From: Minisyncoccia bacterium
GTDB taxonomy: Bacteria; Patescibacteriota; Minisyncoccia; UBA6257; 2-01-FULL-56-20
Length of the DNA stretch: 64,000 nt
Assembly: GCA_049997875.1 (NCBI GenBank)
Contig: JBEKRC010000001.1
Coordinates: 14,775-78,774 of the forward strand
Reading direction: 5' to 3'
Shown here: one piece after another, positions 10,150 through 25,859 of the stretch
How the letters are laid out: every line of letters starts with the position of its first letter
Position numbering within the stretch: position 1 is the first letter of the stretch
The notes under the pieces: model-generated
What the model was told of the DNA's origin: nothing
What the model saw: only the letters and a program-made list of their open reading frames with translations
Databases searched by the model: none
Made by a program: the position numbers and the translations under genes

Positions 10150-16881
<6,732 letters not shown>

Positions 16882-16928
16882 TACACACAAAAACGGTGCC
16901 ACTCTTTATTCCAAGAGGTCCCGTTGGC

Positions 16929-20631: not shown

Positions 20632-20752
20632 GATGTCGGCACATCCTACTTTCCCCGCAGGCGAACCCGCAAGTATCATGGGATCGGGGCGCTTTCACTT
20701 CTCTGTTCGGAATGGGAAGAGGTGGGACACGCCCGGATAGAGCACCGACATC
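20632..20752 (-). rRNA. rrf: 5S rRNA
   Basis: The reverse complement reads GAUGUCGGUGCUC...CCCACCUCUUCCCAUUCCGAACAGAGAAGUGAAAGCGCC...GUGCCGACAUC. Helix I terminal pairing is present. Confidence 0.85.
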
Positions 20753-21057
20753 AAAAGGTCGTTTTGCATGATGAGCGTGCATTTTGCAGACAGTACTCAG
20801 AAGGGCCGTCTGCAAAACGCACACTCACCATGTTCAACTCCATTTGTAGAAAATGGAACGAGCGCTTGCAAAATAGCTTTTGGACGAGAGCCCTTCCGAG
20901 TACTCTCGGACAAAAGCTATTTTGCAAGCACGAAGTCAGCATTGGGATGGTTGGCGGGATTATTAGTACTCCTCGGCTGAAACCCTCGCGGGCCTTACAC
21001 CTGGAGCCTATCAACGTGGTAGTCTTCCACGAAATCACACACACCTAATCTTGGGGT

Positions 21058-21091
<34 letters not shown>

Positions 21092-21231
21092 CTTCCCTAC
21101 ATAGCTACCCGGCAGTTCAGTTGGTACCAAAGCCGGTAGACCAGAGGTAGGTTCAGCAAAGTCCTCTCGTACTAATGCCAACTCCCCTCAAGTGTAAACG
21201 CCTGCAGCAGATAGAGACCGACCTGTCTCAC

Positions 21232-21892
21232 GCAATATATTACTTCACGTCATTACTGACGGTTTGGACTATACCACTATCTCGATCCGCATCGAGATAA
21301 TCGACGTTTTATGGAATTTTTCTTCCATCCAATCTTTTAGATTGAGTCTCTACGGGGTCAATGTATATAATTTTCGCTTCTTTGAATGATTTAATTCTCT
21401 GAAACGATCTACGGTCTTCATCAGCAGGTGAAAATCGTTTCGATCTTTCACCTCAGCTTTCTTATCTAAGATTTCCAGCATAAGCATTGCCTGTTCCTTT
21501 TTCAAAATGAGATATGGCTGGACCATTACGAGGAATGCGCGGATAGCGTCTTCTCTCGCGATGGTATATTCAACCATGCCGTCATTTCTCTCTCGGATAT
21601 ATCCGAGATCAATAAGAGAACAAATCTGCTCGAACTTTTTCAGTTCTTTCCAGAAATCCTGCAATATATGCTTTTTGTGCTGACGAAAGACTTTTACACA
21701 TGACTTCCCTCGGTATTATCCTATAACCATTCAGCGCATCAAAATACTTTTTAATATATTTTTAATGGTCATTATGGTATGCACGTCCACAGGTCATGGA
21801 CGATAGGACTTCACCGATATGAGTCAATTTTTTTCAATCCGCATTACTGCGAAAAGCCGCCGTGTTCGATCATCGTAAAGGGTTCTTTCGTT
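21232..21892 (-). mobile_element. group I intron in 23S rRNA at the E. coli L2593 (I-CreI/I-CeuI) site
   Basis: The exon reads ...GGGUUCAGACCGU | intron | CGUGAGACAGGUCGG. The 5' exon ends in U and the intron ends in G. Confidence 0.7.
21350..21664 (-). pseudogene. N-terminally truncated LAGLIDADG homing endonuclease remnant inside the L2593 intron
   Basis: The 104-aa frame matches the C-terminal half of single-motif LAGLIDADG enzymes. It has no ATG and no LAGLIDADG motif, and an in-frame stop lies 17 codons upstream. Confidence 0.5.
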
Positions 21893-22547
21893 GACGGTCT
21901 GAACCCAGCTCACGTGGGCTTTTAAATGGCGAACAGCCATACGCTTGGGAGCTTCTTCACCCCCGCGCTAGCCCGAGCCGACATCGAGGTGCCGAGCGAA
22001 GTCGTCGATAGGAACTCTCGGACTTCACCAGCCTGTTATCCCCGGAGTAGCTTTTATCCGGTGTCTCCGGCCTTTCTATCAAGAATGCCGTCGGGTCACT
22101 AACTTCTGCTTTCGCACCTGCTCGTCTTGTAGGACTCGCAGTCAAGCCGGCTTTTGCGTTTGCACGTCCTGCCCGATTTCCATCCGGGCTAAGCCGACCT
22201 TAATAAACTCCTCCGTTACTCTTTTGGAGGAAAACGCCCCATTTAAACTGCCTACCAAGCACTGTCTCGGTCGGGTTTATGCTTGCGCACTCCCCAATCG
22301 GTTAGACGTTAAAGTTTTAAAGATGGCTGTTTCATTGTCGGATCCACGATGCCCGAGAGCACCGCTTCAAATCCTCACCACTACGCTACGCAGTAAAACT
22401 CTAAAATCAATACCAAGCTGCAGTAAAGCTTCCGGGGTCTTTTCGTCCCGCTGCAGGTATCCCGCGTCTTCACGGGAATCGCATTTTCACCGAGCTTGCC
22501 TCTGAGACAGTTCTCCAGTCGTTACGCCTTTCGTGCGCTTCGGAACT

Positions 22548-22746
22548 TCATTCCTGTTGTCTTCGATTTCTCGAAGTGTCGGACTATATATTCATCCCGC
22601 CCATGCGGGAGCTTGCGTGTAGTCTCTACGGAGTCCCTGATCGAATCGGGGTTCCCTCGGTATTGCCCTATTTGCCTGTGCAAACGTAGGTTTCACCGAT
22701 ACAGCAAGTGCTTCAAGATCAATCACTTGATCAAGGGGCAAGTTTC
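22548..22746 (-). mobile_element. roughly 200-nt ORF-less insertion in 23S rRNA at about L1951 (possible small or degenerate group I intron)
   Basis: The exon reads ...UUUUCGGGU | about 197 nt | AAGUUCCGAAGCGCACGAA. The insertion ends in G. Confidence 0.45.
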
Positions 22747-22769
22747 CTTACCCGAAAAGGAATTGCGCT

Positions 22770-23517
22770 CAATTGTGTTAATCTGCATGTCGCCATGCAG
22801 TTCGGACCATATCTTCCCGCGATGCGGGTTCGGCATATGGTCTCTGAGGATTCTAGAAACGGATTTTCTTTCGATTCGTTTTTGAAGCAATGGTAAGAAT
22901 TTTATTCCATCCATCTTCTTTGAGATGGAGTTTTTTACTCATCATTTCCACTACCTTTTTGAACAAAACAAAATCGTTTTGCTTATAGGTCTTTAATGGA
23001 AATTGATCAAAAAATGGAATAATTATTTCTTTCAATTCCGAAATTGATCTCACGCAGTATCGATAAAGATGTTCGTTGTGATTATCGCATCGTTTATTAA
23101 GGACGATACTGCCACACCCGAAGAACTCTTTTATCGCTACGAGGGCGTTTAAACTTTTTGCGCCTTGCGTGATAACAAATTCCGGGAATAGTTGCTTTCC
23201 GAATCGAGTGGTTGAATTTTTGATCACCGAAATAACGAAGCTACCTTCGCCGTCGGTAAATCCAGATATCCAACTTGCCGTTTTTAGTCTTTCCTGCTGA
23301 TTGTCTGCACCGATCATATTTTCACTATACTCATGAAACATTAAATTTCTCTAAAGTTTTCATGAAATACAGTAATGTCGGATGCTCAGATGTTCCAGCA
23401 TATAGCCGATTAAAGGATATTCTGCAGGGCAGAATAGGCTGCGCTTTTATTTTGTTGTACCAAAGCCATAATCGTTCCAATCCTCGCCAGCACCTTTAAT
23501 AAATAAAGACGCGGGCG
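22770..23517 (-). mobile_element. group I intron in 23S rRNA at about L1931
   Basis: The exon reads ...AACUAUAAUCGUUCUAAGGU | intron | AGCGCAAUUCCUUUUCGGGUAAG. The intron ends in G and contains an intact homing endonuclease ORF. Confidence 0.7.
22853..23341 (-). CDS. LAGLIDADG homing endonuclease (intron-encoded)
   Basis: The 162-aa product has an N-terminal WISGFTDGEGSF (LAGLIDADG-type) motif, is AT-rich, and is on the same strand as the rRNA. Confidence 0.85.
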   Translation of the reverse strand: MFHEYSENMIGADNQQERLKTASWISGFTDGEGSFVISVIKNSTTRFGKQLFPEFVITQGAKSLNALVAIKEFFGCGSIVLNKRCDNHNEHLYRYCVRSISELKEIIIPFFDQFPLKTYKQNDFVLFKKVVEMMSKKLHLKEDGWNKILTIASKTNRKKIRF

Positions 23518-25132
23518 ACCTTAGAACGATTATAGTTATCGCTGACATTGACGAGGGCTTGAGTCAGTGAGCAATACATATTACTACATATCACCCCCAA
23601 CCTTGACCTTCTCGCATCGGTCAGGCGTCACCCCCTATACATCCTCTTGCGAGTTAGCAGGGAGCTGTGTTTTTGGTAAACAGTCGCCAGAGAAACTTTC
23701 GCTGCGGCTCCATCGAGACTGAAAGAAGGAAGGGAGGGGATCCTCCCTGAAGAATAATTTGGCCGGGCGGTGCACGACGCAGTAAAAACAAGGAGAGCCT
23801 AATCTCTTCATTCCTACTTGCAGTGAAACCGCGCACCACCCGATATGCCGTTTCCTTCTTTCAGCCCCGATAGAGCAGGCCATATTGCTAACGTACGGCC
23901 GCTTTTTTGCCGAGTTCCTTAGAGGCAAATCACTCGTTCCCCTTGGGCTTCTCGCCCTATCCACCTGTGTCGGTTTACGGTACGGATCCTTTGCAACGTA
24001 ACCGCCGCGCTTTTCTCGGAAGGCTCTTCGTGCGTGTTGATGAGGTAAATTCCTCACCTTCCGCCGATCCTTGTTGAACTTCGGACCAGCGATACCAAAC
24101 CAATAAGGCATACGCACCTATTTCCTTCGCACACGACGGATAATCACAAAGGAGGGCTGGAATATTAACCAGCATTCCATCAGCTGCGGCTTTCGCCATC
24201 GCCTTAGGATCGCCTAACCCGTGGTTGATTGCCAGTGCCACGGAAACCTTGGATTTTCGGGGTTCCAATTTCTCATTGGGATTGTGGTTACTCATACCAA
24301 CATTTTCTCTTCGTATCGCTCCACTCGCCCTCACGGGTCGGGCTTCACTGCAATACGAATGCTCTCCTACCACTCACCGATCCCGAAGGATCGGCGAATC
24401 CGTATCTTCGGTACCATGCTTAGCCCCGGTACATTTTCGGCGCCACCACCCGTCGAATAGTGAGTTGTTACACACTCTTTAAAGGATGGCTACCTCTAAG
24501 CCAACCTCCTATCTGTCTATGGGTGATGACTACCTTTAACACTTAGCATGGATTTGGGGACCTTAGATAACGGTCTGGGCTCTTCCCCTCGCGACCACGG
24601 AGCTTAGCCCCCGCAGTCTGACTAGTGCGGGATCCGCCTGCGGTATTCGGAGTTTGATTGATCGATCGGCCTTTCGGCCTTTACCGATCATCCAGTGCTC
24701 TACCCCCGCAGGATTTTCCGCACCGCTAGTCCTAAAACTATTTCGGAGAGAACCAGCTATTACCGAATTCGATTAGCTTTTCACTCCTTACCTCAGCTCA
24801 TCCGAGAGTTTTGAACAACTCACCAGTTCGGGCCTCCCCTTCGATTTCTCGAAGGTTCACCCTGGCCAAGGCAAGCTCATCCGGCTTCGGGTCTACCTTG
24901 TGCTGCGATCCCACTCAATAAATTGAGTGGGATGTACGCCCTATTAAGACTCGCTTTCGCTATGCCTGCACGCTATGCGCGTTTAGACAAGCAACACAAG
25001 ATAAGTCGTTGGCTCATTCTTCAATAGGCACATTGTCGCACCGCGCGGACACATTGCTGCGTCCACGCTTAGTGCTTCAATTCCTTGTAGACAAATGGTT
25101 TCAGGTTCTATTTCAACGGCCTCACCGGCCTG

Positions 25133-25169
<37 letters not shown>

Positions 25170-25859
25170 ATCTAGAAAAGTATTTAGCCTTACCTGATAG
25201 TACAGGCAAATTCCTTCGGGACTTATTTACCCCGAAGTACTCAAGTTGAAAAACTAAGGAGATCGTAAGTTTTCGCCTACGGGACTATCACCCTCTTTGG
25301 CCCCGCCTTTCCAGGCGGCTTCGGCTAACCAACGATTTTTTTACTCCTCCTTATTTCACCAATCGCCGAATCCCCGGGACGTGCCCGGAAACTCGGCGAC
25401 CAGTAAAACAGCGTCTCTCTCTTATAACCCCAAGGTCCGATCTTGCGATCAGAACCTTAGTTTAGGCTCTTCCCTGTTCTCTCGCCGATACTAAGGGAAT
25501 AAACTGATTTGTTCTATGTTCCTTTGGCTACTGAAATGTTTTACTTCGCCAAGTACGCGAATCGGCTTGCGCCGAAACAATTACGGTTTACGTAATTAGG
25601 TTTCCCCATTCGGACATCCCCGGATCACAGGTTGCTACGCACCTCCCCGAGGCGTATCGTCGCTACGCCACGTCCTTCATCGCCTTTTCTAGTCAAGGCA
25701 TCCACCATTCGCCCTTATTGAGATCCGTCTTGCGACGGAAATGCCAACCATCCCAATGCTGACTTTTACTTATTGAGACTGAGAGAAGGAGCGGAAAAGT
25801 TTGGTGATGGTTACCATTCCTCCGCTACTTTCAATATGTTGTTCTCCTGAGCCTGAGTT

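Follow-up and report, generated by a model that had tools for sequence, protein, structure and literature searches.

A 748-nucleotide (nt) insertion in the 23S ribosomal RNA (rRNA) gene of a Minisyncoccia bacterium is very probably a member of the classical L1931 family of mobile 23S group I introns, with the gene for its own homodimer-type LAGLIDADG homing endonuclease; its splicing and DNA cleavage would be those of its relatives. The insertion is located in a 64,000-nt stretch of contig JBEKRC010000001.1 (termed the window; position 1 is its first letter). As read directly from the junction, it extends from C23517 to G22770 on the minus strand, where all features described below are located. 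The 5′ exon, ...CGUUCUAAGGU (also given as ...AUAAUCGUUCUAAGGU and ...GUCAGCGAUAACUAUAAUCGUUCUAAGGU), stops at position 23518, and the 3′ exon resumes with AGCGCAAUUCC from position 22769. The region is covered by the Rfam model LSU_rRNA_bacteria (RF02541), also on the minus strand. The initial annotation of this DNA described an exon split by 748 nt at positions 22770–23517, and its coordinates and both exon strings are exact; it placed the feature without a strand, which is the minus strand. It also counted the element as the second intron of the gene. This has to be revised, as there are three insertions: L1931 (22770–23517), L1951 (22549–22749) and L2593 (21233–21893).

Escherichia coli numbering was counted from helix 69 with U1911, U1915, U1917, U1939 and C1962 as anchors, which we take to be the known modified residues of 23S rRNA. 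By this count the break is placed after E. coli U1931. The L1931 site presumably belongs to the subunit interface, where helix 69 has its base. The exon junction has a U at position −1, and the last intron base (the omega position) is a G (22770).

The Rfam group I intron model (RF00028) gives the insert a score of 21.7 bits (E-value = 0.0048), below the threshold of 50, and the match is well aligned only at the J8/7-P7-P9 end. The score is low because loop L6 holds about 430 nt of an open reading frame (ORF), and codons also occupy the P4′, P5′ and P6 strands. An Infernal group I classification, proposed earlier as a check, is thus misleading when applied naively, and the ribozyme was therefore examined comparatively. 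A metagenome profile scan with an alignment of 30 protein homologues gave 80 loci. In at least 59 of these a homologous endonuclease gene is found at the same rRNA site, either within a 613–959 nt insert at the exact junction or ahead of the conserved R element and the AGCG exon; the flanks of the remaining loci are unusable. The yield was 48 distinct introns. These relatives display conserved P-, R- and S-like elements, and the conserved N-terminal part of the coding sequence, GCAGACAAUCAGCAGGAAAG, looks like the Q element. ORF-deleted “mini-introns” were cut at anchors chosen independently of complementarity, and 33 of them were aligned with gaps only in the P8 loop.

An explicit model of 43 base pairs over the 33 introns (1419 cells) is paired in 96.5% of cells, compared with 31%–39% when the partners are slid by 1–3 columns. 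Double-sided changes are present in 24 of the 43 pairs, and the observed values are not reached in any of 500 shuffles. Covarying pairs are found in P3 (5 of 6), P5a (7 of 7), P8 (4 of 4), P9 (5 of 7) and P7 (2 of 5). P4, P5 and P6 are invariant, with 100%, 87% and 99% pairable, respectively. A blind RNAalifold prediction from the same alignment, a method that cannot draw the P7 pseudoknot, recovers P3, P4, P5, P5a, P6, P8 and P9 and adds a helix P6a, in which the Leu19 codon (CUA/UUA) pairs with the stop codon (UAG/UAA); this shows C-G in 19 sequences and U-A in 12. P9.0 consists of two pairs, in which J7/9 meets the two bases immediately 5′ of the last one of the intron, and is 84.8% paired versus 29%–36% when slid. 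The 3′ splice site is thereby fixed. A first assignment of P4, UGCUGG with CCGACA, was rejected: covariation shows that CCGACAU pairs with AUGAUCGG to form P5a, and that P4′ is UCAGCA within the ORF.

An ORF-less L1931 homologue in a close relative (L082:6536–6772, 237 nt) links the core to the curated Rfam family. It scores 64.5 bits with RF00028 (E-value = 2.5e-16), above the threshold of 50, and is 75% identical to the core of the present intron. Its Rfam alignment has AAUCAGCAGG at P4′, and the helix assignment agrees with the model described here. The shortfall in the window therefore reflects the insertion of the ORF and not a missing core.

The 5′ strand of P3, UCGGC (23405–23409), pairs with GCCGA (22830–22834) and is supported by covariation. 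The 5′ strand of P4, UGCUGG (23395–23400), is the P element and pairs with 23295–23300; the same strands are paired in the Rfam alignment of the ORF-less relative. P5 has the 5′ strand UCUG (23387–23390), pairing with 23304–23307, and P5a has CCGACAU (23375–23381), pairing with AUGAUCGG (23310–23317), also with covariation. The P5b hairpin (23325–23372) has the sequence CUAUGG..CCAUAG, conserved in relatives and extended here. The 3′ strands CAGA of P5 and UCAGCA of P4 occupy 23295–23307, within codons Ala12–Gln16, an assignment on which the covariation model, RNAalifold and the Rfam alignment of the relative agree. RNAalifold places the 5′ strands of P6 (GGA, 23292–23294) and P6a (the Leu19 codon CUA, 23285–23287) at 23285–23294, and their 3′ strands, the stop codon UAG (22853–22855) for P6a and UCC (22848–22850) for P6, at 22848–22855. 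The P8 hairpin, CCCGC AUC GCGGG, is at 22816–22828. J8/7 (AAGAUAU) and the 3′ strand of P7 (GGUCC) follow at 22804–22815, supported by Rfam and by covariation. The 5′ strand of P9.0, AA (22801–22802), and the P9 hairpin with its GCGA tetraloop are at 22783–22802, again with covariation, and the 3′ strand of P9.0, UU, and the terminal G (omegaG, 22770) are at 22770–22772.

P7 in this copy is G[A]GACC (22839–22844) paired with GGUCC (22804–22808), and A22843 is bulged. The pair G22842-C22805 is at the guanosine-binding position, and we take it to be equivalent to Tetrahymena G264-C311, from the alignment of the R and S elements. The G264:C311 pair is the one strictly conserved pair of P7 (PMC2860135). 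The suggestion of a group I intron at about L1931 is thus borne out by a complete catalytic core with covariation support, which includes the G-C pair, the bulged A and omegaG.

There are two types of leader among the L1931 relatives, a short one (~30 nt) and a long one; the present intron has a long leader of 116 nt. Short leaders have the textbook guide, CGCU|GCCUUAG, which forms P10 with the 3′ exon and P1, including a U-G, with CUAAGGU. In the long leader found here, exon sequence AAUCGUUCUAA pairs with intron sequence UUGGAACGAUU, and intron bases 1–4 (CGCC) pair with GGCG. This long P1 has 11 base pairs (bp) with the helix-69 3′ strand and 4 bp with the first intron bases. Its 5′ exon strand, AAUCGUUCUAAGGU (23518–23531, with U1931 at 23518), pairs with 23470–23480, and its intron strand (23470–23488) comprises GGCG, the conserved AGGA loop opposite exon GGU, and UUGGAACGAUU. 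Both pairings track sequence and exon variation in more than 20 long-leader relatives, with 10–11 of the 11 pairs formed, and the long P1 is present in the minimum free energy (MFE) fold (−46.2 kcal/mol, z = −5.45). U1931 is beside the conserved loop, where exon GG is opposite intron AGGA, and it may pair with A34 (as in the MFE fold) or wobble with G35. A P2-like hairpin, UAUUCUGC/GCAGAAUA (23418–23436), is confined to long-leader forms; it is seen in the MFE fold, and analogous hairpins are visible in long-leader relatives. A “classical” guide, GGCUUUGG (23460–23467), can pair with CUAAGGU, but was rejected because it is not conserved in long-leader relatives, where the long P1 covaries.

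The ORF (22853–23341) has 162 codons plus a stop codon and displays the motif WISGFTDGEGSF at residues 24–35 (23237–23272). It matches Pfam LAGLIDADG_1 (PF00961) over the entire profile (positions 1–102 of 102; E-value = 3.9e-25, 89.1 bits versus a cut-off of 23.1), a match much stronger than chance would give. The first AUG (23339–23341) is within the P5b hairpin, but most homologues are called from the second methionine (M9, AUG at 23315–23317, within the 3′ strand of P5a), which gives 154 amino acids (aa). The initial annotation was correct in describing an intact single-motif LAGLIDADG protein; its 162 aa is the longest reading, and the length is unsettled.

The catalytic residue Glu32 (codon 23246–23248) is within GFTDGEG, and D30, G31, E32 and G33 show no variation across 30 aligned homologues. 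Glu32 also aligns with the motif of both I-PanMI domains. Substitution of the catalytic Asp/Glu, which had been named as an observation that would speak against the annotation, is thus not seen. Nei-Gojobori ratios of nonsynonymous to synonymous substitution (dN/dS) are 0.11–0.13 against the two nearest relatives. The AlphaFold2 model (mean predicted local distance difference test score, pLDDT, 83.9) shows a single alpha-beta-beta-alpha-beta-beta-alpha domain with two C-terminal helices. Foldseek gives a probability of 1.00 to I-TnaI and to the I-OnuI family, and the best match in the Protein Data Bank is I-TnaI (5gkk), with 39% identity, a root mean square deviation of 2.1 Å and template modelling (TM) scores of 0.74/0.81. 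By its name, I-TnaI is presumably the enzyme of Thermotoga naphthophila.

A total of 829 protein homologues was found at E < 1e-5, and those that are named come from Parcubacteria-type lineages of the Candidate Phyla Radiation (CPR). A genome-contig scan with the single protein gave one locus, a 44%-identical relative labelled Elusimicrobia. In this metagenome-assembled genome (MAG), a 637-nt L1931 intron (L001:2306–2942) has its ORF 3′ of the R element, in the P8 region, and not in L6. The same pairing of intron and endonuclease can therefore have a different ORF placement.

In the window, the ORF begins in P5a/P5b, reads through P5′, P4′ and P6 (codons A-D-N-Q-Q-E-R), occupies L6 and has its stop codon in P6a. 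Coding and catalytic sequences thus overlap tightly: a start codon is in P5a, codons 12–19 supply P5′, P4′, P6 and P6a, and Leu19 is paired with the stop codon. Because the Met9 start is in P5a and the stop codon pairs with Leu19, translation and ribozyme folding of one RNA molecule should exclude each other. With its ORF in L6 and three core strands coding, the intron is also a worked example of under-calling by Rfam.

The distribution of the intron was followed in relatives identified through RodA homologues, which share the gene order CCA enzyme, tRNAs, 23S, 5S, RodA, YceG, RpoBC. Five syntenic relatives have the 23S gene in range (L082, L083, L085, L086 and L088). In the window, L1917 is empty, L1931 has an intron with an intact ORF, L1951 has an intron, and L2593 has an intron with a decayed ORF. 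L082, whose RodA is 91% identical, has an L1917 intron with an ORF and an ORF-less L1931 intron, and L1951 and L2593 are empty. L083 has only an L2593 intron, with an ORF, the other three sites being empty. In L085 ~240 nt are inserted between TAACTAT and CTAAGGT at L1917, just upstream of the L1931 site, and L1931, L1951 and L2593 are empty. All four sites are empty in L086 and L088. In the comparison of related genomes that had been suggested earlier, the presence of the intron at L1931 is polymorphic. The empty L1931 sites of L083, L086 and L088 are identical to the present exon junction over 45 nt, so that intact targets are present in sister populations; the upstream flank of the empty L085 site is different. 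A patchy distribution of this kind is a prediction of the homing cycle (PMC1995217). The window and its syntenic relatives together display stages of that cycle: an empty site, an intact element, an ORF-less intron and a decayed endonuclease gene. The intron-less L1931 sequence, GCGATAACTATAATCGTTCTAAGGTAGCGCAATTCCTTTTCGGGTAAG, was taken as the predicted cleavage target. A pseudo-palindrome search of this site gave at best 6 of 11 positions and was uninformative.

One further feature of L082 (5799–6772) may be mentioned. Its L1917 intron encodes a 184-aa LAGLIDADG protein that also starts ...NMISADNQQERL, and the 237-nt ORF-less L1931 intron follows 14 nt later. The shared start suggests that the L1917 ORF has the same overlap with P4′–P6.

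The following sequence of events is proposed. The pre-23S transcript would fold into a group I ribozyme with a long P1, no classical P2 and a complex P5 (P5, P5a, P5b), followed by the P3/P7 pseudoknot and then P8, P9.0 and P9. The G22842-C22805 pair of P7 would accommodate an exogenous guanosine, which would attack after U1931. Its place would next be taken by omegaG (22770), and ligation of the exons would restore the sequence at the base of helix 69. The 154–162 aa product is expected to dimerise and to cut intron-less 23S ribosomal DNA (rDNA) at the L1931 junction, as judged from its family, its CPR relatives and its single-domain architecture. Repair from the intron-bearing copy would spread the element (homing). 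The comparative evidence given above shows the structure of the ribozyme, and the chemistry is that expected of the family.

Several observations weigh against this interpretation. The RF00028 score of this copy is below threshold. P4, P5 and P6 do not vary, so covariation cannot test them, and they are also codon-constrained. The partner of U1931 in the purine-rich internal loop is ambiguous, a canonical U-G pair being one of two candidates. Helices enclose both candidate AUG codons (the first in the 3′ strand of P5b, that of Met9 in P5a), and no obvious Shine-Dalgarno sequence was seen. In addition, the L1931 intron of Simkania is, going by the title of a 1999 report by Everett, reportedly an “unspliced group I intron in 23S rRNA”.

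The protein might now act mainly as a maturase, i.e. as an RNA-folding cofactor for its own intron and not as a DNA endonuclease, which would explain its retention without an internal target. We regard this as unlikely, although it is the alternative that best survives. A single rRNA operon is likely in this genome, so that an internal target would be lacking, the ORF is under strong purifying selection, and the atypical long P1 with its ambiguous U-G could need the help of a protein. There is also a match to the structure of the bI3 maturase (2ab5, E-value = 2e-10), and LAGLIDADG proteins with maturase activity are established (PMC11270868). However, none of the 30 homologues departs from Glu32 or from any other residue of DGEG, identical empty target sites are present in sister genomes, the intron is scattered patchily among close relatives, which homing would predict, and a related CPR enzyme cleaves DNA (PMC11270868). 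It should be added that the two roles are compatible and do not exclude each other.

It is very improbable that the element is already decaying, with a ribozyme still needed for rRNA maturation and an endonuclease gene that is dead. Once fixed, a homing element is predicted to degenerate (PMC1995217), a frameshifted endonuclease remnant is present in the L2593 intron of the same gene, and the L1931 intron of L082 is ORF-less. The present ORF, however, is full length with an intact motif, its dN/dS is ~0.11, and its AlphaFold2 model is confident and I-TnaI-like. Least probable of all is an insert that stays in the mature 23S rRNA, or is excised without ligation to leave a fragmented 23S: the low RF00028 score, the title “An unspliced group I intron in 23S rRNA...” (Everett 1999) and the occurrence of fragmenting intervening sequences in CPR 23S genes (PMC11270868) would agree with it, but all catalytic elements are conserved with compensatory changes, including the G-binding pair, P9.0 and omegaG, which are relevant to splicing only, an insert of 748 nt would probably not be tolerated where helix 69 has its base, at the interface of the subunits, and CPR rRNA insertions are reportedly removed from transcripts (PMC11270868). 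A mobile intron with its own, presumably active endonuclease remains the best explanation.

The relatives of the intron contain a group of unusual sequences. In 13 homologous L1931 introns from other metagenomes (L025, L027, L029/L030, L037, L039, L040, L044, L050, L051, L052, L054, L059 and L060; last 100–120 nt of the intron) an A-U pair replaces the otherwise strictly conserved G-C at the guanosine-binding position of P7, and all 13 end in U and not in G. They have the R element CAGAAACCAAACG and the S element AGAUAGAGUUC, plus three further changes in the P7 region. The 13 have intact ORFs, covariation in P8 and P9, and three types of host exon. Their register is fixed by covariation of P9.0 at the 3′ end and by P1 at the 5′ end. 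The omega position across the family is G in ~30 loci, A in ~14, all with the G-C site, and U in 13. The omegaA loci that keep G-C are L015, L019, L023, L031, L035, L042, L045, L047, L049, L056, L064/66/67, L071 and L075. In a tree of the endonuclease proteins, omegaA and omegaU members are intermixed in one clade that is without omegaG members and includes most of the omegaA introns represented in the tree; the protein tree was used, as a neighbor-joining tree of the short RNA alignment is too noisy. The U-ending relatives might be read as omegaA introns by a one-base shift of both splice sites, but the P9.0 and P1 registers reject this. The A-ending relatives were also considered as L1933 introns, a reading that was rejected because it works only for those starting with AG.

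A natural intron without omegaG is reportedly known from Coxiella, to judge from a title. No report of natural A-U/omegaU group I introns was found in the literature searched. It is possible, but doubtful, that some natural group I ribozymes of this clade have a re-specified nucleoside pocket, e.g. with a U*A-U triple in place of G*G-C. These, if real, might use a cofactor other than guanosine, with the present intron as the matched G-type reference, and the variants, if functional, could interest ribozyme specialists. What is potentially surprising concerns these relatives; the intron of the window is canonical.

The 23S gene of the window spans 20956–25728, ~4.8 kb with its three introns, and the 5S gene (20633–20750) is downstream of it. 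A whole-window Rfam match wrongly ends the 23S gene at 21811; in a regional scan, model positions 2364–2912 extend to ~20956, across the L2593 insert. The L1951 intron (22549–22749) is 201 nt in length, has no ORF and follows U1951. It scores 53.6 bits with RF00028 (threshold 50) and has a U at position −1 and a G at its end. A mini-exon of 20 nt (22750–22769; 23S positions 1932–1951) separates it from the L1931 intron, a spacing at which the order of splicing, or skipping of the exon, may matter. The L2593 insert (21233–21893, 661 nt) follows U2593, which we take to be the I-CreI site. It likewise has a U at −1 and a G at its end, and it has an S-like element, GUAUAGUCC. This insert contains a frameshifted remnant of an I-CreI-like endonuclease, in pieces at 21350–21664 and 21609–21701, whose LAGLIDADG motif has decayed to AGFLERTEK. 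Searches of the L2593 insert gave no Pfam match, and no RF00028 match at E ≤ 1.

A “Minisyncoccia bacterium” MAG (phylum Minisyncoccota) encodes a protein with 100% identity to GatB of the window, and on these grounds the host is assigned to the CPR (Patescibacteria). Elsewhere in the window, a 2250-codon ORF at 10150–16902 is syntenic with genes of relatives encoding 2243–2252 aa, whose products combine Pfam domains of RNA polymerase beta (Rpb2) and of beta′ (Rpb1). The ORF therefore looks like an rpoB-rpoC fusion; gene calls in some relatives divide this region into many fragments.

Members of the L1931 family are described as having no P2, a complex P5 and an ORF running into the ribozyme core, and a 162-aa L1931 endonuclease is listed for Thermotoga naphthophila (PMC1995217). 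The site is the same here, and so are the missing classical P2, the complex P5 and the ORF reaching into the core; among the aligned relatives it is the short forms that lack P2. Family introns have 654–700 nt, compared with 748 here, and encode endonucleases of 143–167 aa. The present copy differs in a ~85-nt longer 5′ leader, a 15-bp P1 that sequesters the helix-69 strand, a P2-like hairpin and a CPR host. Organellar L1931 copies have been labelled IB4 (PMC11019260), and “IC1-like” in PMC1995217.

In the CPR, insertions are found in 82% of 23S genes, and LAGLIDADG_1 proteins are concentrated at 23S positions 1917, 1931, 1952, 2593, 2604 and 2657 (Tsurumaki et al. 2024, PMC11270868). This agrees with the earlier remark that intron-laden rRNA genes typify these bacteria. 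The position-1931 insertions and the enzyme I-ShaI of that study share with the present element the clade, gene, site class, Pfam domain and single-domain proteins. I-ShaI cleaves its site and dimerises (PMC11270868). It is 33% identical to the present protein and shares the N-terminal NQQER, which here encodes P4′/P6. It belongs to a different sub-family, with 42% identity to I-CeuI (PMC11270868). By our own count on the published 30+30-nt oligonucleotides, the insertion point of I-ShaI looks like L1923 and that of I-KazI like L1931. The introns were classified there by Rfam only, and the RNA structure was not dissected (PMC11270868).

Each half of the I-OnuI family enzymes of fungal mitochondria (I-PanMI, I-LtrI, I-SmaMI, I-OnuI) aligns with the whole of the present protein, with 30%–40% identity, E-values down to 2e-43 and a shared GF(V/T)DGEG. 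Those enzymes are fused pseudo-dimers of ~300 aa with asymmetric sites, whereas the present protein is a single domain that would have to dimerise. The 23S gene of Coxiella burnetii reportedly has two group I introns flanking a 34-bp exon, according to the title of a 2007 report by Raghavan et al. As far as that title goes, the window is similar in having two close 23S introns, L1931 and L1951, around a 20-nt exon. The Coxiella sites are L1917 and L1951; here there is a third intron at L2593 and a canonical omegaG in the L1931 intron. The L1931 element is thus ordinary for a CPR 23S gene and belongs to a well-described family, and in itself it matters little. What is added here is an explicit, covariation-tested secondary structure, the overlap of coding and ribozyme sequences, and the leader variant with a long P1.

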